From Patescibacteria group bacterium UBA926 (GTDB taxonomy: Bacteria > Patescibacteriota > Doudnabacteria > UBA920), in the NCBI GenBank assembly GCA_002293685.1, contig DBDS01000007.1, forward strand, positions 40,140-104,139: DNA of 64,000 nt, read 5' to 3'. Position 1 is the first letter of the stretch, and each line of letters begins with the position of its first letter. A model generated the notes under the pieces. It worked only from the letters and a program-made list of their open reading frames with translations, did not search any database and was not told where the DNA came from. Below are positions 10,943 through 31,885 of this stretch, in pieces. The position numbers and the translations under genes are program-made.

Positions 10943-10961
10943 TGGTAGCGCTACGGGGAAT
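10943..10961 (-). repeat. 19 bp direct repeat of the tRNA-Glu 3' end. Candidate att site remnant and left boundary of the island.
   Basis: TGGTAGCGCTACGGGGAAT is identical to 31811-31829, the 3'-terminal 19 nt of the tRNA on the minus strand. The flanks diverge immediately afterwards. Confidence 0.55.
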
Positions 10962-11289
10962 TCCGCCTCACCGCGCTGCTGCGCGGCTCGTTGTTCGGGG
11001 TTGCGAGAAACTGCTCCCAGCAGTTTCTCGATCGCTCGGTTTCAGTTTTCTCTGCTAGATACAACTTCACCTCGCTTCAACCCGTTCGATTCCTCTATAC
11101 CAATACCATAATAAAAACCCGAAGCAAGTTCGAGTTTTTATTATGGTAGTGATACCGCGTCTAGAACTGCCCAGATGGGGGAATTACAAGGGGTTTCAAG
11201 CATTCCCAGTATGGACGCTGCGACGCATCCGAGTCTGCCGTATAAATGCTACAAATGAGACATTATAAAAGCTATATAAGACTGTCTCA

Positions 11290-13503
11290 TTATATAATTT
11301 TTAAGCATTCGAAGAATTCGACAAGTATTGCTTTGATATCACCATCTGAAGCGGTTGAAGTGTTGTCATGAAGTTCAATTTGAAGGCTATCACATAATCT
11401 AATAAATCTTGTTTTCTTCGCAGGATCCCCATCGAATACCTTTATAGAAAATGTACGAACACTTTTTCTTTGAGCCAATTCGTCTTTTATATCGAAGTAG
11501 TACTTCCTTTTAAATATATTTTCTAAAATTATACGACAGTCATCTGCATATTTTTGATCAAAGCTTTCGTTAGCTAAAATATTTTGGACACGTTTTAGTC
11601 GATCAATAATATCATCATCTGGAAAATCTTGATCAATATCACAATATTCTATTTCGCTTTGTTTTGTGCCATCCGATATTTTTGAAGAGATTTTTAAAGT
11701 CTGAGCATTAGATAGTTCGGGGAGTTTTTTAAAATCCTTATAGAATTCTTTTTCATGAGTCAGAATAATCTTTTGTTTAGGTGTGTCAGTTCCATTAGAA
11801 ACGTCTGCTATAAAATGAATGGTTTTCATTTTTCTTTCTCTGTCAAAGCTTGAAAGAGGATCATCGAAAACTACAATCTTATTTTTTAGATCTTGATCAT
11901 GGCTTAAGATGGATAAGAAGAATGCAAAGGCTAAAAGACGCTTATCGCTTTCACTGAATGTGTTATGAAAGGATGGGGAATCTTCAGTGTCACCGTCTAT
12001 TGTGATTGAATGTTCGTTGAAGAATCGAATGGCGAAGATTCTTTCTTTTTGGTTACGCAATTTCTTTAGGGGTACAAAATCGATTATTTCGAAATCTGCA
12101 CCAAGTTGGGAACAAAATGAATTAATAGTACCTTTATGTTCACTAAAGATTGTAGTTGAGTATTCTTCCAGTTCTTTTCTTTGGAGATCGCGCTTGTAAC
12201 GCAACTCATTAGCTGTTTTCTCTATTTGTGCGCTACTGTCAAAGAATTCTACCCACTCTGGTTCGAATCTCTTTTTAATATTTTCTAAATCAATCTTTTC
12301 GTCCCGAAGTTGTTTTATATCTATGGCGCCAGGCTCCGCTACACTTGCTTGCAAGTTTTTTATGTCTCCTAAAATTCTACTGAATTCGCTCTTGATGAGA
12401 ACAAAGTCAGGATTTTCTGCGCAATTCACAATCAAATTTAAGTTTTTTTGTTTAGCCTCAACTATAAGGTCGAATCTTTTTTTAGCAGAGACTATCTCTT
12501 GTTTTTGGGTTTCGGTGATATTTAAGGTGACGCCAATTTGTTTAAACTCAGTAATAGTTTTATCCAGCACACTTTCTATATCCCATCTAAGAAAGCTATT
12601 ACCCGTAGTTTCTATCTCATTTCTTAATGCTTCATATTCTTCACGAAATAGCTCCTTGTATGATTTAATTAAATCTTGTGCTTCGCTTAAAAGCGCTTGT
12701 CCACAAAAAACACAATTTGTTGCATTCTCACCCAATAGCTCAACTCCTTCTTTCAAAAATTGTTGCGAGTGGAATTTGTCTTTCCAGTGTTTTGATATAT
12801 GCTCTTCTACTGCATCTTGTTTAGCATCAAAAGTCTTATCAAAAGTAGTTTCATAAGAGATGAAGTCGGTATTAAAAACATTGTTCCTGACTAAGTTGTT
12901 AAATTGAACCTGTTCGTCGAAAAATTTGATTTTTTCGTCTAAGACTTTAATATGTTCATCAATATCAGGGTCGTTCTCAACAGCACCCAATTTCTTAAAA
13001 TCTGCTCCTGGAAAGCTTCTAGAAAATTCTGTAGTTTTAGCACTTTTCTGTGCGGTTAATTTATCAGATTCTATCTGTAGATCGTTGATCTGTTTCTGAA
13101 GCAATTTACCTCGTTCGCCAATAATAATTTCATTTAAGTTTTTTTGATGCTCAAAAGAAATCTGTTCGCCATCAAATATATTTTCAGCTATAAATTTAGT
13201 ATCAAAAATATGGATGTCTCTGTTCTGATTATTCCATTTTCCATTTTGAAAAAGATATGAGGTTTTTATTCCCCCATCTTCAAAGTCTAAAGATATTTTT
13301 TGATCATCCGTTGATCCAAAACTTCTCCTGCTGATGACTAAATTTCCGACCCCAGTCTTGAGAGAGCGGAGGATGGCAGTAAAGGTGCTTTTGCCACAAG
13401 TATTGTGAGCAAATATCAAAGTATTTATACCAAACTCCTGACCAGGCGGATGACTGTCTCTAAATTTCCCTACATTTTTTATGTTTTGAATTCTTTTAAG
13501 CAT
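11290..13503 (-). CDS. RloC-like ABC-type ATPase with a long coiled-coil insert carrying a CxxC zinc hook. Candidate anticodon-nuclease or abortive-infection defence protein.
   Basis: Walker A (NTLIFAHNTCGKSTF) near the N-terminus. A coiled-coil region of about 500 aa contains CVFCGQ, a Rad50-like hook. Walker B/D-loop (KIVVFDDPLSSFD) lies near residue 545, followed by a C-terminal domain of about 190 aa. This architecture matches the RloC/PrrC family. Confidence 0.45.
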   Translation of the reverse strand: MLKRIQNIKNVGKFRDSHPPGQEFGINTLIFAHNTCGKSTFTAILRSLKTGVGNLVISRRSFGSTDDQKISLDFEDGGIKTSYLFQNGKWNNQNRDIHIFDTKFIAENIFDGEQISFEHQKNLNEIIIGERGKLLQKQINDLQIESDKLTAQKSAKTTEFSRSFPGADFKKLGAVENDPDIDEHIKVLDEKIKFFDEQVQFNNLVRNNVFNTDFISYETTFDKTFDAKQDAVEEHISKHWKDKFHSQQFLKEGVELLGENATNCVFCGQALLSEAQDLIKSYKELFREEYEALRNEIETTGNSFLRWDIESVLDKTITEFKQIGVTLNITETQKQEIVSAKKRFDLIVEAKQKNLNLIVNCAENPDFVLIKSEFSRILGDIKNLQASVAEPGAIDIKQLRDEKIDLENIKKRFEPEWVEFFDSSAQIEKTANELRYKRDLQRKELEEYSTTIFSEHKGTINSFCSQLGADFEIIDFVPLKKLRNQKERIFAIRFFNEHSITIDGDTEDSPSFHNTFSESDKRLLAFAFFLSILSHDQDLKNKIVVFDDPLSSFDRERKMKTIHFIADVSNGTDTPKQKIILTHEKEFYKDFKKLPELSNAQTLKISSKISDGTKQSEIEYCDIDQDFPDDDIIDRLKRVQNILANESFDQKYADDCRIILENIFKRKYYFDIKDELAQRKSVRTFSIKVFDGDPAKKTRFIRLCDSLQIELHDNTSTASDGDIKAILVEFFECLKII

Positions 13504-13598
13504 TGGTCAGGGTTAAATTAAGCTTATTTTAGCACTTTTATGTACTTCTGAATAGATTACATAAGTTCAAATAATAAGGTAAAATAAAGACAATATAT

Positions 13599-14204
13599 AT
13601 GAACAAAAAAGTAAAAAAGCCAGAATTTACATATCCTTTTAACGATAAAGAGCATGAAGAATCTCTTAAGTTTTTAGATATTCGTAGAATGAATATGGTA
13701 AGTCAACGTGGTTCTAAAGTCGAACTAACGGAAACCATGTATCACAGTAGTAAATATCACAAACTTGAGCTGAAAGAAACAATTTACATAAAGAAAAGTG
13801 AAAGTAAGAATTTAGGCGAAATTTTATATCTCCGTCCCCATAATCAAGTAAAGGGTCAAAAATACTTAGTGTTTGCAGTAAATATCAAGAAGGATGGTAA
13901 AGTATATTTTGCTCGAGAAACAATTCTTGAGAAAGTGGCAGAGTTCTCTAATGACCAATGGATGATCATAAAGACGTTTTATGAATCAAAAAACGTTTCG
14001 CTAAAGGACGCACTAGAAATTATTAGCCGCCATACAGGTGGGGTATATAATACCACCGGATCGCTGAGGTCAACTATTAATAAGATCAACCGTAAAATAA
14101 AGAGTGCATTCAAGTTAACAGAAAACGATAAAATGATAAGTGGTGAACAAGGCAGTGGTTACTCTTTTAATTCACATATCCGCTTAAATGTAATTGAAGA
14201 TTAA
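13599..14204 (+). CDS. Hypothetical protein, divergently transcribed from the ATPase gene.
   Basis: 201 aa. No recognisable motif. Possible C-terminal DNA-binding region. Confidence 0.45.
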   Translation: MNKKVKKPEFTYPFNDKEHEESLKFLDIRRMNMVSQRGSKVELTETMYHSSKYHKLELKETIYIKKSESKNLGEILYLRPHNQVKGQKYLVFAVNIKKDGKVYFARETILEKVAEFSNDQWMIIKTFYESKNVSLKDALEIISRHTGGVYNTTGSLRSTINKINRKIKSAFKLTENDKMISGEQGSGYSFNSHIRLNVIED

Positions 14205-14359
14205 TACTAATTAGGTGTAGTGGATAAATCTTCTTAAAAGCCTTATTTTAAAGGCTTTTTTGTTTGTTTTAATTTTTCTGGTTGCACGTTTCAATAACGT
14301 GCTTTTTGGTTATGCTGAATTTGATAAAGCTATCTACATTATTAATTAAAATAAATTTT

Positions 14360-15637
14360 ATGAGCAAGAAAATAATTTGGCATACGGAAAAGAGAGTAGT
14401 GAAAGACCTTATTCGATACGAGAAAAACCCGCGTAAACTTTCGTCCTCACAACTTGAAGGCTTGAAACGCAGTCTTAAGAAATTTGATGTTGCAGAGTTA
14501 CCATGTATTAACACTGACGGAACATTAGTAGTAGGGAATCAGCGCGTAATGGTGCTATCGCTTCTTGGGCGGGAAAATGAAGAAATAGAAGTGAGAGTCC
14601 CAAACAGATTACTCTCGGAAGCAGAATTTAAGGACTACCTTCTTACATCGAATCGCAGTGGCGGCACGTTTGACTACGAAAAACTTGCTGCGGATTTTGA
14701 TCTAGAAGAACTATTAACAGCAGGTTTTGATTCGTTAGATTTAAGTAATATCTTTGACGATAATCTGGAAATCAACGATGACGAATTCGATGAAGTCCGT
14801 GAGCTTGAGAAAGCAAAAACTACTGATATAAAGATTGGTAACATGTTTAGGCTAGGTAGGCATTTCTTAATCTGTGGAGATGCCCTTGATCCTAATACTG
14901 TTAAAAAACTCATGGGAGATGCTCGTGCCGACCTTATCGACACAGATTTGCCATACAATATAGGACTCTCCTATGATCGTGGTGTAAGTAACCACCGAAG
15001 CTTCGGCGGTTCTACAGACGATAGTAAACCTGACGAGCAGTACAAACAGTTCGTTAAAACGATTATGCAAAATTCATTATCTGTTGCTAAGAAAGATGCG
15101 CATTGCGCATGGTGGTGCGATGAACGATATGTCTATATTTTTCAGCAAATCTATAAAGAGCTTGGTATTGATTCCAAACGGCTTCTTATCTGGGTAAAGA
15201 ATAATCAATCGGTTACTCCTAAGAACGCATTTAATAAGATTACAGAGTTTGCAGTGTATGGCACTATCGGCAAGCCTTGGCTGAATGACAAAGTAAGAAA
15301 CTTGCACGAGGTTCAAAACAAAGAAATAACTACCGGCAATCGAGTTATCGAAGACATTCTTGATCTTATAAATATCTGGTTGGTTAAAAGAATACCAGGT
15401 TCAGAGATGGATCACCCAACAGAAAAAAGTCCGACTATTCACGAAAAGATTCTGCGCCGTTGTACTCGTCCTGGAGACATTGTTTTAGATATGACTGCAG
15501 GATCTGGAAGTATACTATCGGCTTGTGAGCAATTAAAACGAACTGCTTACGTGTGCGATTATGAACCTATTTTCTGTCAGTTAATAATTAATAGATTTAA
15601 ACAAATATCAAATGAAAAAGTTATCAAGCTCAATTAA
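14360..15637 (+). CDS. ParB-like nuclease domain fused to an N6-adenine/N4-cytosine DNA methyltransferase (phage-type).
   Basis: N-terminal ParB/Srx box (EKNPRKLSSSQLEGLKRSLKKF). Methyltransferase motif IV variant DLPYN and motif I (DMTAGSGS). The first Met at 14360 is the preferred start. Confidence 0.7.
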   Translation: MSKKIIWHTEKRVVKDLIRYEKNPRKLSSSQLEGLKRSLKKFDVAELPCINTDGTLVVGNQRVMVLSLLGRENEEIEVRVPNRLLSEAEFKDYLLTSNRSGGTFDYEKLAADFDLEELLTAGFDSLDLSNIFDDNLEINDDEFDEVRELEKAKTTDIKIGNMFRLGRHFLICGDALDPNTVKKLMGDARADLIDTDLPYNIGLSYDRGVSNHRSFGGSTDDSKPDEQYKQFVKTIMQNSLSVAKKDAHCAWWCDERYVYIFQQIYKELGIDSKRLLIWVKNNQSVTPKNAFNKITEFAVYGTIGKPWLNDKVRNLHEVQNKEITTGNRVIEDILDLINIWLVKRIPGSEMDHPTEKSPTIHEKILRRCTRPGDIVLDMTAGSGSILSACEQLKRTAYVCDYEPIFCQLIINRFKQISNEKVIKLN

Positions 15638-16370
15638 ACTTGGAAACACTTTTCGCTTAGGGTCGCACTTGCTGTTTTGCGGCGATTCTCGAAATAAAGA
15701 AATGGTTGCAAAGCTTATTGGCAAATATAAAATCAAAGCAGTTATCACTGATCCTCCCTACGGTGTTGCAGTCACGGAAAGCAAGGAAAAATTCCAAGCC
15801 CTCTCTAAAAATAAACCCATTCTAAACGATCACTTGCAGAGTGATGAAGAGTACCAAGTCTTTAGCCGTGAATGGATTGAAGTTATAACCCCATACCTTG
15901 AACTTAAAAATAGCTTCTACATTTTTAACTCAGATAAAATGGTTTTTGCTTTACGCGAAGGTATGTTAAACGCAGGTATTAAACTTGCGCAGCTTCTAGT
16001 CTGGGTAAAAACCCAAGCAGTTATTGGAAGAATGGATTATGCACCTCAGCATGAATTAATTGCATATGGATGGCTTGGTGTGCATGAGTTTCTTAAATCT
16101 AAAGATAAAAGTGTACTAGTATGTCCGAAACCAAACAAAAGTAATATGCATCCTTCTACTAAACCTTTAGATTTGATCCGTAGACTTATCCTTAATAGCA
16201 CTCGCATTGGCGATATAGTCTTTGACGGCTTTCTTGGGAGTGGCACTACCTTGCTTGCCTGCGAACAGACAAAGCGAATCTGTATCGGTGTAGAAATGGA
16301 TACCGAGTATTGCCAAACTATAATAGATAGGTTTGAAAAATTAACTGGCGTAAAAGCAGAAAAGTTATGA
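15612..16370 (+). CDS. N6-adenine/N4-cytosine DNA methyltransferase, beta class.
   Basis: Motif IV DPPY (VITDPPYGVAV) precedes motif I FLGSGTT (DGFLGSGTTLLACEQ). Confidence 0.8.
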   Translation: MKKLSSSIKLGNTFRLGSHLLFCGDSRNKEMVAKLIGKYKIKAVITDPPYGVAVTESKEKFQALSKNKPILNDHLQSDEEYQVFSREWIEVITPYLELKNSFYIFNSDKMVFALREGMLNAGIKLAQLLVWVKTQAVIGRMDYAPQHELIAYGWLGVHEFLKSKDKSVLVCPKPNKSNMHPSTKPLDLIRRLILNSTRIGDIVFDGFLGSGTTLLACEQTKRICIGVEMDTEYCQTIIDRFEKLTGVKAEKL

Positions 16371-16804
16371 GTAGGAAAGACACTATTAAGCAGCGGCAGA
16401 ACAAACTCAAAGAAGCATTTCTGACTCAGCTTAAACGTTCACCGACCATTGAAACATCTTGTCAGAAAATCGGCATTGCTAGAGCCACAGTCTATCGCTG
16501 GATAACTGCCAGTGAAAAATTTGAGCGGCAAGTTGATAAGGCTCTACATGAAGGTCGAACGTTTATGTCAGACATTGCCGAAAATCAACTCTTCTCCCTT
16601 ATTAGTGATAAGAAAATTGAAGCAATTAGGCTTTTCCTTTCTACACATAATCCTCGCTATAGTAATAAGCTTGAATTATCCGGATCAGTCGCAGCTAAAG
16701 ATGAAAAGCTCACCAAAGAACAGAAGAAATTGATTCGCGCTGCTCTCAAACTTTCCTCTCTAAACAAACATGAAAACAAAAGTAGAAAAAATAAACAGCC
16801 TTGA
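16367..16804 (+). CDS. Small HTH protein, putative terminase small subunit.
   Basis: HTH (IGIARATVYRWI). 145 aa. Immediately upstream of, and overlapping, the TerL gene. Confidence 0.4.
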   Translation: MSRKDTIKQRQNKLKEAFLTQLKRSPTIETSCQKIGIARATVYRWITASEKFERQVDKALHEGRTFMSDIAENQLFSLISDKKIEAIRLFLSTHNPRYSNKLELSGSVAAKDEKLTKEQKKLIRAALKLSSLNKHENKSRKNKQP

Positions 16805-18233
16805 GTCAGTATTAGAAAAAATCTTGGTTGATAAAACTGTTCGTACTAATACTGTTACGAAAAGTCTTGAATACTTTTTCCCTATTTACTTTCATCGGTA
16901 TATGGAATACGAGACTGCGCCTTTTCATGAAGATATGTTTCGTATTCTTGAAGATGACCAGATTAAACTGGCAGTTATTGTGGCCTTTAGGGGATCAGCT
17001 AAATCAACTATCATTACTACTGCCTATGTCTTGTGGTCTATTTTAGGTGTGCAGCAACGGAAGTTCATCGTCATTTGCGGACAGACCGAGCAAAAGGCTC
17101 GCCAGTATTTGTTAAACATAAAAAATCAACTACTGCACAATGAACTACTACGAAAAGATCTTGGTCCCTTTGAAGAAGAAAAGAATAACTTAGGTAATGC
17201 AACAGCTTTAATTATCAAAAGATTGAATGTCAAAATAATGATTAGTTCGGTTGAGCAAAGCATTCGCGGAATGAGACATGATGAGCATCGCCCTGACCTT
17301 ATTATTTTAGATGACATTGAAGACATTAATTCAGTGAAGACCCGCGAAGGCAGAGATAAGGCATTTAACTGGCTCACTGGCGAAGTGATTCCTGCGGGTA
17401 GCAAACGCACTCGCATCATTGCAGTTGGTAATTTGTTGCATGAAGATTCAGTCTTAAAGAGGTTGCAGAAAAAAATTGAAGGCGGTGAAATGGAGCGAAT
17501 GCGGGGCGTGTATCGAGAATATCCTATTGTCGATGCCAAAGGAAATGCACTCTGGCCAGGAAAATATCCGACTGCTGAAGATGTAGAAATGGAGCGAGAG
17601 AAAACTATGAACGAAGTGGCATGGTATAGAGAATATATGCTGCAGATTATTACGACCGATGAACAAATAGTAATACCTGAATGGATTCACTTTTATGACA
17701 ACATGCCAGCTGATGGACTACGCAGTATTTGTATCGGTGTAGATCTTGCTGTCAGTGAAAAGAGTTCAGCTGACTGTACTGCCATAGTTGTTGGGTATGT
17801 ATTCGGTACAGGTAAAAACTTGAAGATATATATTCAAGAACACCCGTATAATAAGCGGTCGTCGTTTCCCGTTCATGCAGAATATATTAAAGGACTAGTA
17901 GCTAGAGAAAAAATGATGCATTCTCGAGTGAAGTTATATATTGAAGATGTAGGGTATCAAAAAGCTCTCATTCAATATTTTGAAAGCAAGAAATACGATG
18001 TTGAAGGCGTGCCAACCGGCAGAACAGACAAAGCAGCAAGACTTCGCCTAACTACTCCACTACTTAAAGATGCTAGAGTCTTATTCCCTGAAAAAGGTGC
18101 CGAGGAGTTAATTGATCAGCTACTAGGTTTTGGGAAAGAAAAACATGATGACCTGGCAGATGCATTTGCCATATTAGCTTTGAAGATTATTGAGAATAAT
18201 CCTATCCAATCTACAGGGATTCTTATTGGGTAA
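16770..18233 (+). CDS. Phage terminase large subunit (ATPase plus RNaseH-like nuclease).
   Basis: Walker A-like FRGSAKST. Walker B LIILDDIED. C-terminal nuclease acidic residues (DLADAF). 487 aa. Confidence 0.7.
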   Translation: MKTKVEKINSLESVLEKILVDKTVRTNTVTKSLEYFFPIYFHRYMEYETAPFHEDMFRILEDDQIKLAVIVAFRGSAKSTIITTAYVLWSILGVQQRKFIVICGQTEQKARQYLLNIKNQLLHNELLRKDLGPFEEEKNNLGNATALIIKRLNVKIMISSVEQSIRGMRHDEHRPDLIILDDIEDINSVKTREGRDKAFNWLTGEVIPAGSKRTRIIAVGNLLHEDSVLKRLQKKIEGGEMERMRGVYREYPIVDAKGNALWPGKYPTAEDVEMEREKTMNEVAWYREYMLQIITTDEQIVIPEWIHFYDNMPADGLRSICIGVDLAVSEKSSADCTAIVVGYVFGTGKNLKIYIQEHPYNKRSSFPVHAEYIKGLVAREKMMHSRVKLYIEDVGYQKALIQYFESKKYDVEGVPTGRTDKAARLRLTTPLLKDARVLFPEKGAEELIDQLLGFGKEKHDDLADAFAILALKIIENNPIQSTGILIG

Positions 18234-18555
18234 ATATTTTAAATTTTAGCTGGACTTTATAAGAGTTCAGCGGTACTGTTGTCCTTATGAATAATTAGAC
18301 ACAGAAAGGAGCTTGTAGAGAAAAACGTTGATTCTTAAGGAGAAAATCCGTATAATAATAGTAACAATTTATTAAGTAGCCTAAACCGTTTTTATTGGCG
18401 GCATGGTGAAAAGCCCCATGGAAAATACTGAACCCTGCGTTCAGCGTCCTTCCATGGGCCATATCGGGAAACTGATATGGAAGCTTCGGCTTCAGCTGGC
18501 GTGGGGCTTTGTGTTATACAAAGCGTGAAGCCAGCAGAAAGACCCATGGAAAACA

Positions 18556-19500: not shown

Positions 19501-19515
19501 ACATAATTTAAAGAA

Positions 19516-19797: not shown

Positions 19798-19927
19798 TTA
19801 AACCAATTATTATCATTTACAAAATTAGTATGCATAAGTTTTAGATCATTTGGGGTTATAAGTTATCTACTTTAGGTCTAGACTTACTTTAACCCATCCG
19901 GTACTGTGTCCCTGAAAGGAAAAAGTT

Positions 19928-21280: not shown

Positions 21281-21309
21281 TGAATATTACTAACCCTGAT
21301 TTTGGAGAA

Positions 21310-22687: not shown

Positions 22688-22699
22688 CAAATAGAATCT

Positions 22700-23789: not shown

Positions 23790-23799
23790 AGGCAAATAT

Positions 23800-24261: not shown

Positions 24262-24270
24262 AAATTATCT

Positions 24271-24552
24271 ATGAAAAAACTTGAATTAATCGAACATCTC
24301 GCAGCCAGGCTTAGCATTACAAATTCTGAATCAGAAAGATTCGTAAATACCTTTATAAACATGATTTATGAAACTTTGCGTGGTGGTGATACGGTAAATA
24401 TTTCTGGCTTTGGACAGTTTAGTGTTTCGCATCGTGATTCGCGAATGGGTGTTCATCCACGTAACCCATCTCAAAAAATTACTATCCCAGAGCTTAATAC
24501 GCCGAAGTTTAAAGCTGGCGAAGCTTTCAAATCCGCTGTTAAGCTGAGGTAA
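24271..24552 (+). CDS. hup: DNA-binding protein HU.
   Basis: MKKLELIEHLA..GFGQFSV..R..RNP.. arm motif. 93 aa. Confidence 0.85.
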   Translation: MKKLELIEHLAARLSITNSESERFVNTFINMIYETLRGGDTVNISGFGQFSVSHRDSRMGVHPRNPSQKITIPELNTPKFKAGEAFKSAVKLR

Positions 24553-24587
24553 GACCCTAACAATTAACTAGAATAAATTAAAAATAT

Positions 24588-25253
24588 ATGGACGATATCA
24601 ATATTCCTGGAAATGAACCTGCTTCTGATGAAACTAAGGAAAGTGCAACAAAGTTTAAATTCAAAAAACCAAGACCGTTGGTAATTGCTATTATAATTGC
24701 AGTGGTTGTCGTTGGATTGGCTTTGTACTTTGCTAAGGGTCTGTTTGTGGCTGCAGTCGTTAATGGCATGCCAATCAGTCGTTGGTCTGTAATTAAAGTA
24801 TTAGAACAACAAGGTGGCAAACAAGCTCTGCAAGGTATTATTGATGAAAAGGTTATTGAAGCCGAACTCGACAAGCAAAAGGTTTCAGTAACTCCTAAAG
24901 AGATTGATGAACAGATAAAGAAAATTGAGGAGCAAGTAACTAGTCAGGGCGGAACATTAGCAGAAGCACTGGCTCAGCAAGGTATGACAGCAGAGAAGTT
25001 GCGAGAACAAATTACTGTTCAAGAAAAGCTTAAAAAATTATTGGCAGATAAAATTGCAGTTTCTGAGACAGATGTAGATGCGTACGTTTCAGAGAGCAAG
25101 ACACCTGTTCCAGAGGGAGTCAGCCCGGAAGACTTTAGAAAACAAATCAGCGAACAATTAAAGCAGCAGAAGTTCCAGAAGGAAGCTCAAGCCTGGATTG
25201 CTGATCTGACAGGGAATGCCAAAATTAAATACTTCGTGAACTACGGAGAATAA
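24588..25253 (+). CDS. Membrane-anchored SurA-N-terminal-like chaperone domain protein.
   Basis: Transmembrane helix followed by a charged helical domain resembling the SurA_N / PpiC-associated chaperone region. Confidence 0.4.
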   Translation: MDDINIPGNEPASDETKESATKFKFKKPRPLVIAIIIAVVVVGLALYFAKGLFVAAVVNGMPISRWSVIKVLEQQGGKQALQGIIDEKVIEAELDKQKVSVTPKEIDEQIKKIEEQVTSQGGTLAEALAQQGMTAEKLREQITVQEKLKKLLADKIAVSETDVDAYVSESKTPVPEGVSPEDFRKQISEQLKQQKFQKEAQAWIADLTGNAKIKYFVNYGE

Positions 25254-25385
25254 ATATGGGCAAAACAATTAACATCCTAATTGTTCTTAGTCTTCTAGCT
25301 TTAGCTCTTTTAGGTTATGCTCTTTTGAGGAACGATAGTAGTACTATCAACACCACTATTAACAAACCGATTAATAATTAATCAT

Positions 25386-27251
25386 ATGAACAAAAATAAT
25401 ACAAAGTTAGCGGTTACTATAGTCTCTGGGGTGTGTATTGCGCTAGCTTTCTTATTAGAAAAATTAGGCATCTCAGAGTTGGTTGTTAATAGTTTAAATT
25501 ACCTAGCTATCGTATCAGGTGGTTACTTCGTGGCTATTGATGCTTTTCGTGGTTTGTACAAACAGCGGTTTCTAAATATTAACTTTTTAGTTACTGTTGC
25601 TGCTTTGGGCGCTATGTATATTAACCAACTTGGTGAAGCCGCATCTGTCGTATTTTTCTTTTCTCTTGCAGAAGCTTTTGAAAGATACGGAGTTGAGAGA
25701 TCAAGGAAAGCGTTAGAAACGCTAATCAAAAAGTCTCCGCAGATAGCTGTAATGCTAGACGGCTCTAAAGTTAGCGTCGATGCAGTAAAGATCAAAGATG
25801 TTATTACAGTTCGCCCTGGAGATATTATTCCTCTTGATGGTATTGTCCTTAAAGGCACTTCATCAGTTGATGAAGCAACGATTACCGGAGAGCCAATACC
25901 GAAAGATAAACGAGAAGGAGACACAGTATTCGCCAGTACTTTGAATCGTAATGGCTATTTAGAAATAGAAGTAACGAAAGAAAGCAAAGACTCCACTTTC
26001 TCTAAAATAGTTAAGCTGGTCGCACAGGCACAAAGCTCCCGTGCCCCTGCTCAAGACTTCGTAGATAAGTTTGCTAAATACTATACCCCTTCTATTGTAG
26101 TAGCAGCATTGCTGATTGTAGCCGTTCCTACTTTGTTCTTTGGAGGTGTTTTTACAGAATGGCTGTATAGAGCTTTAGTTTTACTCGTGATAGCTTGTCC
26201 GTGCTCCTTAGTTATCTCAACCCCAGTATCAATCGCTTCCGCAATAGGTGGAGCTTCTCGTAAGGGGATCCTGATTAAGGGAGGTAAATTCTTAGAAGCA
26301 TTGAGTAAGGTTAAGGCAGTGGCGTTTGATAAAACTAGAACCCTGACAATGGGAGAACCCTACATTTCCGATGTCGTTACTTTTAGCGGGTTTACCGAAG
26401 AACAAGTATTGTCTGATGCCGCTGGAGTTGAAAAATTTTCATCTCATCCACTCTCTAAAAGCATAGTGGATTTTGCTTTAGCTAAGGGCATTGATCCGCA
26501 TACTATGAGCGAGTATGAAAATATCGCAGGTAAAGGTGGTATGGCTTCCTGTTTAGTTTGTAATGATAAAGCCCACTGTGTTGGTAATCTAAAACTAATC
26601 GGTGCTAACAGCGAAACCACTAAAGAAGTTTTGGCAAAAACTGAAGAGCTGGAGCAACAAGGTAAAACAGTTGTACTGGTTAGTGAAGGTAAAAAGGTTA
26701 TGGGGCTATTGGCTATTTCAGATAAGCTTCGTCCAGAATCAAAATCAGCAATCAACGCCTTAACGGCACAAAAAGTTATTCCAGCAATGCTTACGGGAGA
26801 CAATGAACACAGTGCCGCTTTTGTAGGCAGAGAGTTGGGCATTACTAAGATCTACGCTTCACTGCTTCCTAATGACAAAGTAACAAAGATTGAACTGCTT
26901 AAAAAAGAAATGGGATCAGTGGCAATGGTTGGTGACGGAGTTAATGATGCTCCTTCTCTTGCTACGGCAAATGTTGGCATAGCTATGGGTTCTGGAGGTA
27001 GTGACGTTGCTATTGAAACAGCGGACATTGCTTTGATGAATAGTGATCTACGAAATATTCCAATAGCGATACGACTTGGTAAACGAACCGTAAGAACAAT
27101 AAGACAGAATATAACTGCTTCATTATTAGTGAAAGCTGTGTTCCTTACTGCTGCTCTATTTGGGATTACGGATTTGGAGTATGCCATCGGTGCAGATTCA
27201 ATTTTGGCAATATTAGTAATTGTTAATGGTCTACGACTGTTTTCAGTGTAG
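25386..27251 (+). CDS. Heavy-metal translocating P1B-type ATPase without an N-terminal metal-binding domain.
   Basis: CPC motif (IACPCSL), DKTRT phosphorylation site, SSHPL, TGDN, GDGVNDAP. Confidence 0.85.
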   Translation: MNKNNTKLAVTIVSGVCIALAFLLEKLGISELVVNSLNYLAIVSGGYFVAIDAFRGLYKQRFLNINFLVTVAALGAMYINQLGEAASVVFFFSLAEAFERYGVERSRKALETLIKKSPQIAVMLDGSKVSVDAVKIKDVITVRPGDIIPLDGIVLKGTSSVDEATITGEPIPKDKREGDTVFASTLNRNGYLEIEVTKESKDSTFSKIVKLVAQAQSSRAPAQDFVDKFAKYYTPSIVVAALLIVAVPTLFFGGVFTEWLYRALVLLVIACPCSLVISTPVSIASAIGGASRKGILIKGGKFLEALSKVKAVAFDKTRTLTMGEPYISDVVTFSGFTEEQVLSDAAGVEKFSSHPLSKSIVDFALAKGIDPHTMSEYENIAGKGGMASCLVCNDKAHCVGNLKLIGANSETTKEVLAKTEELEQQGKTVVLVSEGKKVMGLLAISDKLRPESKSAINALTAQKVIPAMLTGDNEHSAAFVGRELGITKIYASLLPNDKVTKIELLKKEMGSVAMVGDGVNDAPSLATANVGIAMGSGGSDVAIETADIALMNSDLRNIPIAIRLGKRTVRTIRQNITASLLVKAVFLTAALFGITDLEYAIGADSILAILVIVNGLRLFSV

Positions 27252-27273
27252 AAATTTATTAAAGTAGATCATC

Positions 27274-28044
27274 ATGCTGAATCTTTTATATGCAGGGTTG
27301 TTAGGAATAGTTGAAGGCATTACGGAATTTTTACCAATTTCTTCCACAGCTCACTTAATTCTTACAGCTAAACTTTTAAATTTACCTCAGACTGAATATC
27401 TCAAAAGCTTTGAAATTATTATTCAGCTTGGAGCAATTTCTTCAGTGGTGGTGCTGTACTGGAAACAGCTATGGCAATGGGAAGTAATAAAGAGGTTAAT
27501 TGTCGCTTTTATTCCAACAGGAATCATTGGGCTGATTGCATATAAATTTGCTAAGCAGTACCTACTAGGAAATACTTCAGTAGTTTTGTGGACGCTATTA
27601 ATTGGCGGTATTCTTATAATTATCTTTGAGTACCTGTATAAAGAAGGAGAGAGCGGATCCCAGGAAATGGCTACTATTTCGTATAAACAATGTTTAGCGA
27701 TTGGATTATTCCAGTCAGTAGCTATTGTCCCAGGGGTATCTAGATCAGCTGCCACAGTAATTGGCGGACTACTGCTTGGGTTAAATCGCAAGACAATTGT
27801 GGAGTTTTCTTTTTTGCTTGCTGTGCCAACGATGCTCGCCGCGAGCGGCCTTGATTTAATAAAGTCTGCTGATCAATTCTCAAAGGATCAGGTTGGTTTT
27901 TTAGCTGTAGGATTTGTAGTGTCATTTGTCGTTGCATTGCTAAGCATAAAGTTTTTACTTCGATATATTAAGAACCACGATTTTAAAGCTTTTGGAATTT
28001 ACCGCATTGCTATAGCAATTCTACTATGGCTTGGGATGAAATGA
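27274..28044 (+). CDS. uppP: Undecaprenyl-diphosphatase.
   Basis: GIVEGITEFLPISSTAHL signature. Eight transmembrane helices. 256 aa. Confidence 0.85.
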   Translation: MLNLLYAGLLGIVEGITEFLPISSTAHLILTAKLLNLPQTEYLKSFEIIIQLGAISSVVVLYWKQLWQWEVIKRLIVAFIPTGIIGLIAYKFAKQYLLGNTSVVLWTLLIGGILIIIFEYLYKEGESGSQEMATISYKQCLAIGLFQSVAIVPGVSRSAATVIGGLLLGLNRKTIVEFSFLLAVPTMLAASGLDLIKSADQFSKDQVGFLAVGFVVSFVVALLSIKFLLRYIKNHDFKAFGIYRIAIAILLWLGMK

Positions 28045-28142
28045 CATCAATTTTTAGTAAATCATCAAATTTCATATCTGTATAGTAATATTATTATTCG
28101 CGTGAAGAGCGAAACCAACATTAACACAATTAATAAAACCTC

Positions 28143-29657
28143 ATGAAACAAAAACTATTAATATATTTTAGTGCCACATTGTTAATATTTACAATGACTG
28201 TGTCATTTATTCCAAATGCTAGTGCGCAATTATCCGTTGTTCGCAATATCACTTTTCCAGTTATTGGAGGTGGTTCATATGCAAATGATTTTGGTGCACC
28301 TCGAAGTGGAGGGCGGTCTCATGAAGGTAATGATATAATGGGAAATAAAATGCAGAAGATGGTGTCTGCTGTTGATGGTGTGATAAGTGATATTACCACT
28401 TCGGAAGCCTCGTGGGGTTTCGCCATTTCCGTTACAGACAATGACGGGTATGAATATAACTATTTGCATGTGAACAATGATACTCCAGGCACTGATGACG
28501 GTAATGGTGGATTTAAAAATGCATTCCCGTCTGGGATGAAAAAAGGATTGCGTGTTAAAGCTGGACAACACATTGCTTATATGGGAGACAGCGGTAATGC
28601 CGAGGAAGTAGGTGCACAGTTACACTTTGAGATTCGTAAAGCACCTAACAATGATCCTATTAATCCGTATGAAAGTTTAAAGCAAGCGAAAGCAATATCG
28701 CAACCACTGGATGATGATAATTCTGATTCCGATTCTGACGATGAATCTTCTTCAAAGGTAACGGAATTTTTCCCATATGATATTTTTGAAGGTGGTGCAA
28801 ATATAGCCAGCGGGAATTTAGATGGAGACTCTGCTGTCGAAATAGTAACAGGCACAGCCTTTGGGGGTGGGGGTCGTACTATTATTAATATCCATGATAC
28901 CAATGGCGACTTGAAACATAAGTTTTTCGCCTATGGCGAAGTATTCCGAGGTGGCGTTGATGTCGCAGTAGCGGATGTAGATGGTGATGGTAAGCAGGAT
29001 ATTATTACTGCAGCCGGACCAGGTGGAGGGCCACATATTAAAGTGTTCAAACCCGATGGCACGTTAATTACTGAATTCTTTGCATACGGTACGAACTTCC
29101 GAGGTGGAGTGTATGTTTCTGCCGCAGATATGGATGGCGACGGCAAAGCCGAGATTGTAACTGGCCCTGGAGCAGGAGGTGGTCCCCATGTGCGTATGTT
29201 TAATGGTAACGGTGTTGTTCAAAAAGAACTGTTCGCATACGATGCTGGGTTTACAGGCGGTGTTGATGTCGCTGCATTTGGTGTAACTAATAAACAGCCA
29301 GGTGGTTTTGCTACTGCTCCAGGTTCAAGTGGCGGTCCTCATATTAAGGTCTTTGATGCATCAGCAAAACTGACCAACGAATTTATGACTTATGAAGGAA
29401 GTTTTACAAATGGCGTGCGCATTTCAGCCGGAAATTTATTACGCACAAATGGGGCAGAGATAGTTACGATTCCCGCTAACAACAGTAATCCCACGTTAAA
29501 AGTATTTAGAACCAATGGCACTTTAGAAGAAACAGAAATTGGTGGTTTTGAAAGTAATGCTGTTGGTGGTTACGATGCAGCAATAGTAGGATCAGATGTT
29601 TATACTGCTTCTCAATCTGGTCGCAAAACTTCTGTACGAAAAGTCTTAGGGTTGTAA
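28143..29657 (+). CDS. Secreted M23-family peptidase fused to FG-GAP/VCBS-like beta-propeller repeats.
   Basis: Signal peptide. M23 motifs (HEGNDI ... YLHVNN ... HFEIR). Repeated GDLDGDSA / DVDGDGK and GPGGGPHIKVF units. Confidence 0.7.
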   Translation: MKQKLLIYFSATLLIFTMTVSFIPNASAQLSVVRNITFPVIGGGSYANDFGAPRSGGRSHEGNDIMGNKMQKMVSAVDGVISDITTSEASWGFAISVTDNDGYEYNYLHVNNDTPGTDDGNGGFKNAFPSGMKKGLRVKAGQHIAYMGDSGNAEEVGAQLHFEIRKAPNNDPINPYESLKQAKAISQPLDDDNSDSDSDDESSSKVTEFFPYDIFEGGANIASGNLDGDSAVEIVTGTAFGGGGRTIINIHDTNGDLKHKFFAYGEVFRGGVDVAVADVDGDGKQDIITAAGPGGGPHIKVFKPDGTLITEFFAYGTNFRGGVYVSAADMDGDGKAEIVTGPGAGGGPHVRMFNGNGVVQKELFAYDAGFTGGVDVAAFGVTNKQPGGFATAPGSSGGPHIKVFDASAKLTNEFMTYEGSFTNGVRISAGNLLRTNGAEIVTIPANNSNPTLKVFRTNGTLEETEIGGFESNAVGGYDAAIVGSDVYTASQSGRKTSVRKVLGL

Positions 29658-29663
29658 TTTGGT

Positions 29664-30365
29664 ATGAAAAAATTATTCTTGACTTTTATATTTATCGGGG
29701 TAGGGATTTACTTTGTTTATCCTAAAATAGATAGAGCCGAACAATCAAATGTTGAAAAGGTATCTGTAAATAATTTACCTAAAACAGTTGCTATAGATGT
29801 TCCTTTCACTTCTCAAGCACCTCTAGATGGACAGTGGGAAGATGACCGTTATCAAAACGCTTGTGAGGAAGCATCTATCCTTATGGCGATGGCTTGGGTT
29901 AATTCATTTACTTTGACGCCAGAAGAGGCAAGCGAGGAAATCGCCAAGCTAACACAATATCAACAAGACCGTTATGGTGAACATCGTGACCGTTCAGCTA
30001 AAGATACTGCTCAGCTCATTCAGGATTATTTTCAGTATGACAATGTAGAATATAAGACTAATATCGACACTGAAGATATTATCGCAGAACTGAATAAAGG
30101 CAATATCGTAGTTGCACCATTCAATGGTCAGAAATTGAATAACCCTTATTATATCCCACCTGGGCCAATTGAGCATATGGCTGTAATTGTAGGTTATGCC
30201 GAGTCAACTGATGAATTTATAGTAAATGACCCAGGTACAAAAAGAGGTAAAGATTTTCGTTATTCTGCAAGTGTAGTCCAAAATGCTTTGCAGGATTATC
30301 CTACTGGCTATCACTTGCCTATAACACAAGTGGATAAGAACATGATAATTATTCGACCAAAGTAA
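29664..30365 (+). CDS. Secreted C39-like (papain-fold) peptidase domain protein.
   Basis: Signal or transmembrane anchor. Candidate catalytic Cys (QNACEEAS) and His (HMAVIVGY). Confidence 0.4.
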   Translation: MKKLFLTFIFIGVGIYFVYPKIDRAEQSNVEKVSVNNLPKTVAIDVPFTSQAPLDGQWEDDRYQNACEEASILMAMAWVNSFTLTPEEASEEIAKLTQYQQDRYGEHRDRSAKDTAQLIQDYFQYDNVEYKTNIDTEDIIAELNKGNIVVAPFNGQKLNNPYYIPPGPIEHMAVIVGYAESTDEFIVNDPGTKRGKDFRYSASVVQNALQDYPTGYHLPITQVDKNMIIIRPK

Positions 30366-30736
30366 TAATCAAACACTGAAGGATAAAAATAGATAACCAC
30401 CATACAGAATTCTTACAGGAAATTATCTTGGTTAAATTCCAAATTAAAGAGGGCTTAATCTGGCTAAAGTTATGGTTTTTCCACAAAAAATAGTTGATGG
30501 TAAAATTTGCTTTTGGTAACCTTAAAAAGCATCATAAACAGTTTTAAAAAATAATCTGAATTATTGACCTTGCGCAGATTGCAAGTAAAGGAAACAACAT
30601 TATAGATATTTATAATTCCAAGCACAGGCAGAGTAAAATAGTATTTTTTAGACCTCTGAAATTTCATACCATAATTCCTAAGCAGAAACCAAGTTTATGG
30701 CAATATGCATCAAAATTTTCCAGTAAAATTTTCATT

Positions 30737-31672
30737 ATGCTTATTGTTGTTGGGATTGCTGGCTTTAGTTTTATATTTTTAGGTAAACCACAAAATAACC
30801 AACCAGAAGGGCAAGTGCTGGGAGCAACTTCTTCTGCTAATCAGGAAGAGAGTAAACCTAGTGAAGATAATCTTCTAATAAAAACAGCCCAAGCTGCTAG
30901 TCTTGAAGATCAAGAGCAAGGCGAGCATAAGCCATTCGAATATGAAGTGGAAGGCGGAGACACATTGTTGGGCATTGCTCAGAAATACAACCTTAAGCTG
31001 GAAACAATCCTTTGGGCTAACAACCTAACTGAAAAGAGCGTAATTAAACCCGGTCAAATATTGACTTTGATTCCAGTAGATGGGGTTCTGCATACAGTTC
31101 AAAAAGGAAATACTATTAGTGAGATCGCCAGCGTCTACAAAGCGGACACTCAAAAAATCATTGATTACAATGGATTATCAGATGTTACGAATATACATGC
31201 TGGAGATGTAGTCATTGTTCCAGACGGTAAGCCTTTACCAACCTCTCCAGCTCCAAAAGGCAACGGTAAGATTGCGAAAGGTACTCCATGGATGCAAGTT
31301 GCAGCAGGTAGCCTTCTGTGGCCTACAACCCATCGTAATGTCAGTCAGGGGTACTCTGCTGCACATCGCGGCTTGGACATCGCTAATGGCGGTAAACCAA
31401 TAATTATTGCTGCTCAAAGTGGCAAAGTGGAATTCGCAGGATCAGATGGCCCATGGGGGAATACAATCGTTATCCGTGGTAATGATGGTCTTGTAACTCG
31501 CTACTCTCATAACTCTGAAAATTATGTTAAAACTGGAGATGATGTAACAGCTGGAGAAACTATTGGTAAAGTTGGCAATACCGGTAATGTTAGAGGTAAG
31601 ACTGGTTTGCATGTTGACTTCAGGGTATATAAGAATGGGGTGGCAATCAATCCAAAATCCGTAACAAAATAA
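30737..31672 (+). CDS. LysM-domain (x2) M23 peptidoglycan endopeptidase.
   Basis: Two LysM motifs (GDTLLGIAQKY.., GNTISEIASVY..) and M23 motifs (HRGLDIA, HVDFRV). Confidence 0.8.
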   Translation: MLIVVGIAGFSFIFLGKPQNNQPEGQVLGATSSANQEESKPSEDNLLIKTAQAASLEDQEQGEHKPFEYEVEGGDTLLGIAQKYNLKLETILWANNLTEKSVIKPGQILTLIPVDGVLHTVQKGNTISEIASVYKADTQKIIDYNGLSDVTNIHAGDVVIVPDGKPLPTSPAPKGNGKIAKGTPWMQVAAGSLLWPTTHRNVSQGYSAAHRGLDIANGGKPIIIAAQSGKVEFAGSDGPWGNTIVIRGNDGLVTRYSHNSENYVKTGDDVTAGETIGKVGNTGNVRGKTGLHVDFRVYKNGVAINPKSVTK

Positions 31673-31724
31673 GGCTCTTAATTTTTAGTTATCATTCTTC
31701 ATATCACGTGAGCTTGAATTAAGA

Positions 31725-31757
31725 AAACACCACCCAATTGGGTGGTGTTTTCTTTGG
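31725..31757 (+). terminator. Rho-independent terminator after the LysM-M23 gene.
   Basis: AAAACACCACCCAATTGGGTGGTGTTTTCTTT. Confidence 0.6.
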
Positions 31758-31810
31758 AACAGCTCGCAGCATATAGCGACCCTTCCGAGTCACTCGATAC
31801 TGCGAGCTGT

Positions 31811-31885
31811 TGGTAGCGCTACGGGGAATCGAACCCCGATTACCAGGATGAAAACCTGGCGTCCTAACCATTAGACGATAGCGCC
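31811..31885 (-). tRNA. tRNA-Glu (anticodon UUC), CCA encoded.
   Basis: Minus-strand cloverleaf: acceptor GGCGCTA / TAGCGCT, D-loop AATGGTTA, anticodon stem CCAGG/CCTGG with loop TTTTCAT, T-arm CGGGG-TTCGATT-CCCCG, ACCA 3' end. Confidence 0.8.

Follow-up and report, generated by a model that had tools for sequence, protein, structure and literature searches.

Tandem accretion arrays, in which integrase-less units flanked by att sites lie side by side, are known from the CIME and ICE elements of Streptococcus thermophilus. Islands inserted at tRNA genes by tyrosine integrases typically carry direct repeats of the length seen here (19 bp), and the sites used by serine integrases are usually dyad-symmetric. 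The mobile elements of the small, host-dependent CPR/Saccharibacteria are poorly charted, and for the present locus comparison with relatives shows where insertion took place, where the limits lie (to within a few bases) and in what order the units arrived.

The preliminary description of the window (the whole stretch of DNA analysed, 64 kb) proposed a 21-kb island bounded by a 19-bp repeat of the tRNA-Glu 3' end. DNA has been inserted at the tRNA, as it proposed, but the repeat belongs to a small unit, U, and the large insert is 11150-31810. The sites and units are:

9315-9951, + strand: unit B, the oldest, with a degenerate core TGGTAT (9315-9320), genes of 64 and 116 aa and a hairpin; placed by the end of homology with L096 and L103
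9952-10942, + strand: unit A, with a TGGTAG core (9952-9957), a 30-nt arm (9958-9990), a 235-aa gene and T3; placed by comparison of cores and arms
10914-10937, - strand: T3, a displaced former tRNA terminator (hairpin, then a T-run on the tRNA strand); terminator scan and alignment
10943-10961, + strand: displaced 19-bp copy of the tRNA-Glu 3' end; repeat search and homology to L106/L108
10962-11143, no strand: U unit, including hairpin T'; alignments, covariation, folding and nhmmer
11144-11149, + strand: TGGTAG core, left island junction; position of the tRNA start in relatives with U directly behind the tRNA
11150-31810, no strand: large insert of 20,661 bp (20.66 kb), an E1-family mobile module plus an envelope/metal block; absent from the same site in relatives
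31727-31811, no strand: right-hand island end, comprising the terminator hairpin T_w (about 31727-31765) and the interrupted inverted repeat I7
31811-31885, - strand: tRNA-Glu(TTC), intact; ARAGORN, and Rfam tRNA at 66.8 bits

The 19-mer TGGTAGCGCTACGGGGAAT is present in exactly two copies in the 64-kb window, at 10943-10961 and 31811-31829 in the same orientation, where none is expected by chance; no third copy was found in the window at up to three mismatches. It is the reverse complement of the last 19 bases of tRNA-Glu(TTC), a gene found by both ARAGORN and Rfam; the identity and orientation reported earlier are correct. The repeat covers the last three T-loop bases, the 3' T-stem, the 3' acceptor strand, the discriminator A and CCA, and is exactly 19 bp long because the flanking bases differ on both sides. 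The last six bases of the tRNA, CTACCA, read TGGTAG on the + strand (31811-31816) and are the core that recurs at the junctions. In every relative checked, tRNA-Glu(TTC) lies upstream of a 241-aa gene.

In L106 and L108 the terminator and tRNA 3' end align with the stretch 10874-10961, which comprises the old terminator and the 19-mer, and the tRNA part of the match ends right after GGGGAAT; T3 itself aligns with the terminators adjoining the tRNA in these two loci. Because the sequence to the left, terminator included, matches the native downstream flank of the tRNA in relatives, the alignments show that the 19-mer is a genuine displaced tRNA 3' end, which upholds the earlier view of a displaced tRNA fragment at the distal end.

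Relatives join the left flank of the window (to about 9315) to the tRNA and the right flank with 0.3-3.5 kb between them, and there is no large insert at this site in L096/L097, L102-L104, L105, L106, L108 or L109. In L096/L097, Cohesin, IleRS, TsaD, DUF378, a Na/H exchanger and a 439-aa gene are followed by about 1 kb and then by tRNA-Glu(TTC), the 241-aa gene, CsoR, TrxB and GDH. Because the relatives join both flanks with so little between them, the intervening DNA has been inserted; the search for an empty tRNA-Glu site in related genomes, proposed in the preliminary description, thus shows that this DNA is absent there. The comparison of composition proposed alongside it gave a concordant result, with both the GC content and the tetranucleotides of 11150-31810 differing from the flanks. 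GC is 0.372 in the module and 0.389 in the cargo block against 0.414-0.430 in the flanks, and the tetranucleotide correlation to the host is 0.88 and 0.86, respectively, against 0.96-0.98. The two halves are closer to each other (r = 0.93) than to the host.

U has a structured body of ~140 nt, in which two hairpins show covariation and the blocks GATCGCTCG and CAACCCGTTCGATTCC are conserved; the hairpin T' (about 11104-11143) also belongs to the unit. The ends of U pair with each other, its folding z-scores are -4.07 on the + strand and -2.24 on the - strand, and at 11080-11110 it contains the tRNA 3' end in inverted, degenerate form. No gene or recombinase was found within the unit. In Rfam searches only the tRNA and a LOOT RNA pass in the window, and nothing credible covers U in L014 at E-values up to 1. 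Copies were identified by nhmmer in L014, L096, L103, L105, L106, L108 and L109, and they are found behind both tRNA-Glu genes. In L014, a conspecific contig, the left flank of the window leads into two U units in tandem and then into tRNA-Glu(CTC) and ScpB.

The arrangement in relatives dates the repeat. Within 220 bp, L096/L097 have the tRNA followed by a hairpin, the ~140-nt U body and an identical 19-mer, with no island; L105 has the same order of tRNA, hairpin and U, with a diverged and split copy of the repeat. Since U and the 19-mer are present without the island in L096/L097, the 19-mer is older than the island. The comparison therefore shows that the 19-bp repeat marks an older insertion of ~200 bp, U, and not the 21-kb island. 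The preliminary description had also allowed that the 19-mer might belong to a tRNA pseudogene unrelated to integration: it is indeed separate from the island, but it still derives from an older, different integration.

In the window, U and its hairpin (10962-11143) adjoin the 19-mer and are followed by TGGTAG at the point where the tRNA of the relatives starts. T' is homologous to the hairpin that adjoins the tRNA in L103, and beyond it come TGGTAG and then non-homologous DNA. Because U and T' adjoin the 19-mer and TGGTAG stands at the tRNA start of the relatives, the large insert is 11150-31810, with boundaries placed to within a few bases. TGGTAG, corresponding to the last six tRNA bases, stands at both limits of the island (11144 and 31811). 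Of the 24 bases that start at 11144, 17 agree with the tRNA 3' end, the best non-self match in the window, and of the 18 bases after the left TGGTAG, 11 agree, with the same spacing. The + strand of the window has 18 copies of TGGTAG, and the junctions were called on comparative breakpoints, not on the 6-bp repeat alone. At the right end, an inverted repeat with 23-nt arms (31758-31780 and 31789-31811), 83% complementary and perfect over the outer 11 bp, abuts the tRNA; homology of L245 to this end stops at about 31810, and no tRNA follows in L245. The 19-mer is the distal boundary of U, not of the 20.7-kb island.

A single island of ~20.9 kb (10962-31810) could instead have entered the segment from the T loop to the 3' end of the tRNA, with U as its far end (attP arm) and the short forms of the relatives as deletion remnants of the same island family. 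The 19-bp repeat is an exact, true displaced tRNA end of the length typical of tyrosine integrases, and the conservation of U across species would suit an island end to which recombination proteins bind. We consider this quite unlikely. No tyrosine integrase was matched in the window, U is found alone in a minimum of four other species and the 20.7 kb only here, and T' adjoins U and then a tRNA-like stub, as in the short versions, whereas an intact island predicts a hairpin beside the real tRNA. In addition, L106 and L108 have unrelated inserts at the same hairpin-TGGTAG junction.

Further units lie beyond the 19-mer. The body of unit A (9958-10942), which falls outside the coordinates first proposed, carries a 235-aa gene (10113-10820) with no assigned function. 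The motif of its conserved 30-nt arm has a single copy in the window and two in L108, all of them directly after hairpin-TGGTAG. Unit B ends in a perfect 17-bp hairpin (I18, 9915-9952), and homology of L096/L103 with the window stops at TGGTA(T/A) or TGGTGG, the leftmost break being the degenerate core. A hairpin and TGGTAG followed by foreign DNA are found in the window at 9952, in L106 at 8754, in L108 at 7384 and 7938 and in L105 at 3671. The presence of this junction at 9952 and in the relatives shows that units have been stacked at the tRNA end, and the caution in the preliminary description that the structure might be composite was justified. L099 has a different element at the same tRNA end, directly adjoining it and encoding a 498-aa serine recombinase, which suggests that serine recombinases use this end.

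Local duplication and decay (unequal crossing-over, pseudogenes) could also yield pieces of tRNA end, with the intervening DNA coming from unrelated insertions. The tandem U units of L014 could come from unequal crossing-over, and the inverted tRNA end within U resembles a decayed convergent tRNA copy. The L014 units, however, differ by many paired hairpin changes, which argues against a recent duplication. The same tRNA-end base is the breakpoint in several species with unrelated inserts, the tRNA is intact in every case and the displaced fragment carries its old terminator along. Duplication is therefore highly improbable as the origin of the layers.

The preferred reading remains that of layered insertion, with the 20.66-kb island as the newest unit. 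Its genes are:

11290-13503, - strand: AAA_13 ATPase, candidate anti-phage defence PDC-S06 (Pfam AAA_13, 1e-21; PADLOC PDC-S06, 2.9e-60, full length)
14282-18233, + strand: ParB-like N6/N4 methyltransferase, second methyltransferase, small and large terminase (Pfam; PHROGs)
18378-18493, + strand: LOOT RNA (Rfam RF03000), 70.2 bits against a gathering score of 46.4
19928-21280, + strand: large serine recombinase (integrase) with Resolvase, Recombinase and Zn_ribbon_recom domains (phrog_95 integrase, 2e-57)
21310-31672, no strand: envelope/metal block with HXXEE, zinc-ribbon, DsbB, DsbA-like, HU, SurA-like, P-type ATPase, UppP, M23/FG-GAP, C39-like peptidase and LysM/M23 genes (Pfam)

The gene content first listed agrees with Pfam, PHROGs and PADLOC, the RloC-like ATPase being AAA_13/PDC-S06. 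In 14282-18233 the PHROGs matches are phrog_498, phrog_24579 and phrog_38 (8e-81). The large terminase shares no more than 24-27% identity with annotated phage terminases, and its best matches are Mu-like phages. The remaining ORFs match methylases, zinc ribbons or nothing in Pfam and PHROGs. No capsid, portal, tail or lysis genes were found in the island, where only TerS and TerL match virion-related families, and a complete prophage was rejected on this ground. No repressor, primase or replication module was recognisable in the window. The enzyme at 19928-21280 is the sole recombinase found in the 64-kb window. It has PF00239, PF07508, PF13408 and an N-terminal serine motif, its YARKST aligning with YVRVST of the L099 enzyme, and its distances from the two island ends are about 9 and 10.5 kb, which puts it mid-island and not beside the att site, as had been pointed out earlier.

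The core of the module (ParB-methylase, methylase, TerS, TerL, LOOT RNA and large serine integrase) recurs in the viral contigs L236-L242 and also in L244, with variable cargo on both sides. The methyltransferase/terminase gene order is the same in all of these, and LOOT RNA is present in 5/8 related element loci. Defence or other cargo flanks the integrase of L236 and L239 on either side, and the L244 integrase is likewise internal; no structural genes were found among the scanned L236/L239 flanking proteins or the called genes of L244. L244 joins a 68%-identical integrase to homologues of four cargo genes of the window.

The origin of the cargo is a separate question. Cargo homologues are clustered in a different order in L245 and L246, and those of L245 (ATPase, 92% aa identity; LysM/M23, 87%) lie among core-like genes (MnmA, YbaB), so the cargo could be lineage DNA moved by rearrangement. 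Only the ~10-kb module (about 11150-21300) would then be mobile, and 21.3-31.8 kb would have arrived by chromosomal rearrangement, for example through recombination between the two tRNA-Glu loci or between U copies. In agreement with this, the L244 integrase ends 9 nt from the neighbouring gene, suggesting that elements of the family end just past the integrase, and the junction of the left flank to tRNA-Glu(CTC)/ScpB in L014 shows that rearrangement or recombination between tRNA-Glu loci occurs. Against it, the cargo deviates in composition just as the module does and is missing from the site in all relatives, four of its homologues are again linked to an integrase in L244, the integrase of L236 and L239 is flanked by cargo on both sides, and no TGGTAG or tRNA-like scar was found at the module/cargo boundary (21281-21310). 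On this evidence a mobile module alone is unlikely. The recurrence of the module, the L244 linkage, the similarity of the two halves and the lack of a scar suggest that the island arrived as one piece.

Taken together, the data suggest that the 3' end of tRNA-Glu(TTC) is a hotspot for site-specific integration in this Saccharibacteria-like (candidate phyla radiation, CPR) lineage. Each arriving unit would recombine within or beside the last tRNA bases (CTACCA), bringing a new CTACCA copy and terminator hairpin and displacing the previous 3' end and terminator outward. The order outward from the tRNA would be the 20.66-kb island (11150-31810, newest), the U unit (10962-11143), without genes and with the 19-bp tRNA fragment at its far side, the 1-kb unit A (9958-10942) and the 0.6-kb unit B (9321-9951). 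The island would be one composite mobile element, its core having PDC-S06 cargo on one side and the envelope/metal-homeostasis block on the other. We give this explanation a probability of about 0.6. The crossover probably lies within CTACCA, and the island's own putative serine integrase probably made the insertion.

Some observations weigh against the layered explanation. The recombinase is far from both ends, the core is only 6 bp and no dyad symmetry was found around CTACCA in the reconstructed attP. No excised circle was found, nor any empty site within the species, in which all contigs carry the island at about 100% identity, and a scan of viral contigs gave no match to the predicted circle junction. 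The predicted attB is tRNA-Glu/T' and the reconstructed attP is GCGAGCTGT-TGGTAG-TGATACCGCG.

As the small units have no recombinase, an enzyme acting in trans and encoded outside the window may have inserted all of the units. A broader proposal is that such an enzyme serially inserts recombinase-less cassettes, each with a hairpin and a ~30-nt arm, at the last six bases of tRNA-Glu, as an integron- or IMEX-like platform; that U is a functional structured RNA or a folded-DNA recombination site and not a scar; and that the LOOT/terminase/serine-integrase module represents an undescribed, satellite-like family of CPR defence islands. We offer these ideas tentatively, and it is rather doubtful that all of them hold together.

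The locus carries a caution for island calling, namely that a perfect tRNA-derived direct repeat may not belong to the large element inside it. It also links the orphan LOOT RNA motif to a recurrent methylase/terminase/serine-integrase module and brings to light U, a small, structured and conserved element associated with tRNA-Glu genes. Should the serine integrase use the tRNA-Glu end, it would supply a defined attB/attP pair from a phylum for which genetic tools are few.

The recombinase resembles the phiC31, Bxb1 and TP901-1 integrases in its resolvase, recombinase and zinc ribbon domains and its N-terminal R-x-S-T, and differs in being encoded at neither island end and in having no dyad at the proposed core. 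Like phage satellites and phage-inducible chromosomal islands, the island combines an integrase, TerS/TerL and defence genes, and no capsid, portal or tail gene was found in it; unlike phage satellites, it has no recognisable repressor, primase or replication module and has LOOT RNA as a conserved component of its module. Serial recombinase-less units with a hairpin and a short core, the newest nearest the site, recall integron arrays and IMEX at dif; there is no IntI, attI or attC, and the site is a tRNA end and not dif. Membership of the integrons was rejected, there being no tyrosine recombinase in the window and the cores and arms being unrelated to attC, and the likeness would appear to be one of resemblance only. 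Compared with tRNA 3'-end islands and accretion arrays, three of the four junctions here have identity to the tRNA over its final six bases only, the sole recombinase is a large serine enzyme in mid-island and not a tyrosine integrase beside att, and one of the units, U, is non-coding, structured, 200 bp long and conserved across species. In common with those systems, the locus has insertion 3' of an intact tRNA, a displaced fragment and terminator at the far end, inserted DNA of atypical composition, and the newest unit at the tRNA, with small recombinase-less units beside a larger one that bears a recombinase.

The locus behind tRNA-Glu(TTC) is a multi-unit accretion array that reaches past the coordinates of the preliminary description, in which a candidate 21-kb island (10943-31885) was bounded by a 19-bp repeat. 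The repeat itself was confirmed. There are exactly two copies of TGGTAGCGCTACGGGGAAT in the 64-kb window, in the same orientation, where chance predicts none, and the 19-mer was also recovered as repeat family D18. It is the reverse complement of the final 19 bases of the tRNA and covers three T-loop bases, the 3' T-stem, the 3' acceptor strand, the discriminator and CCA. The identity spans 19 bp and no more, since the two copies have different neighbouring bases. The elements at this locus are as follows.

10943-10961: left copy of the 19-mer
10962-11103: body of U, a structured unit of about 200 bp
11104 onwards: hairpin T', homologous to the tRNA-adjoining hairpin of the related genome L103
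11150-31810: large insert, 20,661 bp, with TGGTAG at 11144 and 31811
31811-31829: right copy of the 19-mer, within the tRNA
31811-31885, minus strand: tRNA-Glu(TTC), the sole tRNA in the window

To the left of the copy at 10943, a terminator is predicted on the strand of the tRNA, and the sequence there aligns to the native DNA downstream of this tRNA in two related genomes, L106 and L108, the alignment with their tRNA ending precisely after GGGGAAT. The 19-mer is therefore a genuine tRNA 3' end, displaced with its old terminator attached, which bears out the geometry first proposed.

Relatives were collected via homologues of a lineage-specific 241-aa protein encoded just to the right of the tRNA, and their contigs were then compared. 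In L096/L097 (77% identity in this protein) the order is Cohesin, a 126-aa gene, IleRS, TsaD, DUF378, a Na/H exchanger, a 439-aa gene, about 1 kb, tRNA-Glu(TTC), the 241-aa gene, CsoR, TrxB and GDH; thus the left flank of the window (to about 9315) is joined there to the right flank from the tRNA onward. Only 0.3-3.5 kb occupies the island position in L102-L104, L105, L106/L107, L108 and L109, which makes the stretch 9316-31810, about 22.5 kb, specific to the lineage of the window. The empty tRNA-Glu site that had been suggested as a check is therefore present in relatives, and the interval behind the tRNA varies in all species examined. Near-identical contigs were retrieved from several metagenomes and from two assemblies of uncultured genomes; the nearest species representatives are CPR/Saccharibacteria-like genomes with a TrxB identity of only 69%. 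A TrxB scan for synteny was dropped as uninformative, since its best relatives were 69% identical and without the tRNA, and no relative emerged when genome_contigs was scanned with the 235-aa protein of the left flank. An inversion relative to L096, considered on the basis of the zinc-ribbon gene at 22421-22687, was also discarded because the match is 127 nt of conserved domain only. In L096 (9405-9480) and L108 (7200-7270), next to the zinc-ribbon gene of these genomes and just outside the array, a non-coding stretch of about 70 nt (GGTTGAAGCGCTCA...CTTCTTCCTCACCAG..CCCAAGGCT) is kept between the two species. About 8 kb to the right of the tRNA-Glu site in L106, a further large serine recombinase (544 aa; 18139-19773) and an HTH_17 gene lie beside YchF, so that the conserved right flank may contain another place of integration.

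The unit closed by the 19-mer is the 200-bp U element, which is older than the large insert. L096 and L097 carry the terminator hairpin T, a U body of about 140 nt and an identical 19-mer within 220 bp behind the tRNA, and the island is absent. The tRNA-T-U arrangement is also found in L105, where the repeat copy has diverged and is split by a 31-nt insert; U and T adjoin the tRNA in L109, whose contig begins inside U, and the right half of U is present in L103. In the conspecific contig L014, two tandem U units lie behind tRNA-Glu(CTC). This contig (JGI 3300005674, Ga0074423_100973; 1-3082) is 99.7% identical to window 9496-11118 and runs from the left flank of the window through the two U units to tRNA-Glu(CTC) and ScpB rather than into the island. 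Either the two tRNA-Glu loci were rearranged with each other at strain level, or the contig is a chimera assembled across the U repeat. Two unitig-style Logan contigs from different runs both end inside U hairpin 1, at window 11025, a hint that these samples contain a strain variant or a second U-like copy.

The stems of the two U hairpins vary between species by paired substitutions. U further contains two blocks that hardly vary (GATCGCTCG and CAACCCGTTCGATTCC), and its two ends pair with one another, the near one being a degenerate copy of the tRNA 3' end in inverted orientation. Extra hairpins have been inserted into it in L105 and L109. RNAalifold gave double changes in 19 of 48 pairs on the plus strand and 23 of 57 on the minus strand, and U folded better than shuffled sequence, with z = -4.07 (plus) and -2.24 (minus). 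The strand cues conflict: hairpin 2 has U-G pairs on the plus strand only, whereas hairpin T has G-U pairs on the minus strand only. U was recognised neither as a tRNA or tmRNA nor as any other known RNA by ARAGORN and Rfam, and no Rfam family matched it. Exact U motifs had no match in metagenome_contigs or viral_contigs; a looser 16-mer matched at least 119 stretches in the former and 7 in the latter, with no true U copy among them, and these motif scans did not find U beyond the lineage of the window. There was a single weak nhmmer match, in L117 (E = 5e-6). U may be an RNA, a recombination site of folded DNA or what is minimally left of an old island.

At the position where the tRNA starts in relatives, the window has TGGTAGTGATACCGCGTCTAGAAC, which has TGGTAG in common with the tRNA end, agrees with it at 17 of 24 bases overall and is its best non-self match in the window. 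The right end of the island consists of a LysM/M23 gene, a terminator and an interrupted inverted repeat, I7, with a perfect outer 11 bp; these are homologous to a locus in L245, where no tRNA follows and homology stops at about 31810. Taken together, U, T' and TGGTAG on the left and the end of the L245 homology on the right place the insert at 11150-31810. The proposal of an island integrated at the tRNA-Glu 3' end therefore stands, but the 19-mer closes the older U, and the true left edge lies 200 bp further in, with only six shared bases. The predicted junctions are ...ACTGCGAGCTGT-TGGTAG-TGATACCGCGTCTAG... for the circle (attP), ...GAGTTTTTATTA-TGGTAG-CGCTACGGGGAATCG... for the empty site and ...GGTTGTTAG-TGGTAGCGCTACGGGGAAT-CGAACCCC... 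for a deletion via the 19-mer. The predicted circle junction had no match in viral contigs; we infer both the exact crossover point and the current mobility of the island.

A hairpin and TGGTAG followed by unrelated DNA recur at the following positions.

Window 9952: opens a 1-kb unit with the 235-aa gene, ending at the 19-mer
L106 8754: 1.06-kb unit with DUF2975 and HTH genes
L108 7384 and 7938: two units
L105 3671: 2.6-kb unit with Zip, Fur and YibE_F

Three of these units, the one starting at 9958 in the window and the two in L108, open with a common arm of about 30 nt, TCGTCTGAACGG(C/T)TGGAAA(A/G)CTTATTT. The leftmost homology break between the window, L096 and L103 coincides with TGGTAT at 9315, a degenerate form of the core. 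Repeated site-specific insertion at the tRNA-Glu end is the simplest reading of these units: each newcomer would bring CTACCA and a terminator, and earlier units would be pushed outward. T' and TGGTAG (window 11104-11149) are 91% identical to L105 3633-3676, a hairpin with TGGTAG 2.9 kb from the tRNA-Glu of that genome; it is probably a former terminator of the tRNA that later insertions have moved away. In L099 (6268-7775), from a 74%-related species, a different element adjoins the same tRNA-Glu end and encodes a 498-aa serine recombinase, RuvC-like and TraG/VirD4-like proteins and a second recombinase-domain protein. The recombinase frame enters the tRNA and its final 20 codons are tRNA antisense, so excision would alter the protein C-terminus.

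The large insert holds the gene content named in the preliminary description.

Left half (about 11150-21300): AAA_13/PDC-S06 defence candidate; 201-aa gene; ParB-like methylase; second methylase; TerS; TerL; two zinc-ribbon proteins
18378-18493, plus strand: LOOT RNA (Rfam RF03000), between the large terminase and the integrase
19928-21280: large serine recombinase (450 aa), the sole recombinase in the window
Right half: HXXEE, DsbB/DsbA, HU, SurA-like, P-type ATPase, UppP, three peptidases

In L245, close homologues of the right-half cargo form a cluster with a different gene order that lies among core-like genes, as would be expected if only the module of about 10 kb were mobile and the cargo were rearranged lineage DNA. 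However, both halves have a lower GC content than the flanks (0.372 and 0.389 against 0.414-0.430), and their tetranucleotide correlation is 0.93 with each other and 0.88 and 0.86 with the host, against 0.96-0.98 for host segments. In L244, an integrase 68% identical to that of the window is linked to homologues of four cargo genes. There is no TGGTAG or tRNA-like match, and hence no third att scar, at the module/cargo boundary (21281-21310). Shared composition, the L244 linkage and the missing scar favour one composite element over a mobile module with rearranged cargo. Clusters similar to the cargo adjoin a serine integrase in L244 and a tyrosine integrase in L246, both from GCA_034680565.1, and include P-type ATPase, UppP/BacA, LysM-M23, DsbA, DUF3105 and HXXEE genes. 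This suggests that envelope/metal blocks often travel on mobile DNA in these bacteria.

No tyrosine integrase was found in the 64-kb window, and the serine recombinase is the putative enzyme of insertion. The methylase-TerS-TerL-integrase core was found again in seven viral contigs (L236-L242) and L244. In L236, L239 and L244, the loci with annotated flanks, the core lies beside an OLD-like nuclease, type III restriction-modification, a C5 methylase and a SAVED-domain protein. The integrases of L236 and L239 have defence or other cargo to their left and right, and therefore a mid-element integrase has precedents in the element family. No tRNA-end repeats surround the L240 integrase, near tRNA-Arg, within the 17.8 kb examined. 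LOOT RNA is present in five of eight related element loci (L244 13376-13492; L236 16354-16475; L240 8787-8899; L238 6985-7099; L241 1287-1423), often close to the integrase gene, and looks like a conserved part of the family; the main text of PMC5737381 contains no description of the motif. There are no capsid, portal or tail genes among the scanned flanking proteins of L236 and L239 or the called genes of L244. The window large terminase is only 24-27% identical to the nearest annotated phage terminases, with best matches in Mu-like phages, and the module looks nearer to a satellite or defence island than to a prophage.
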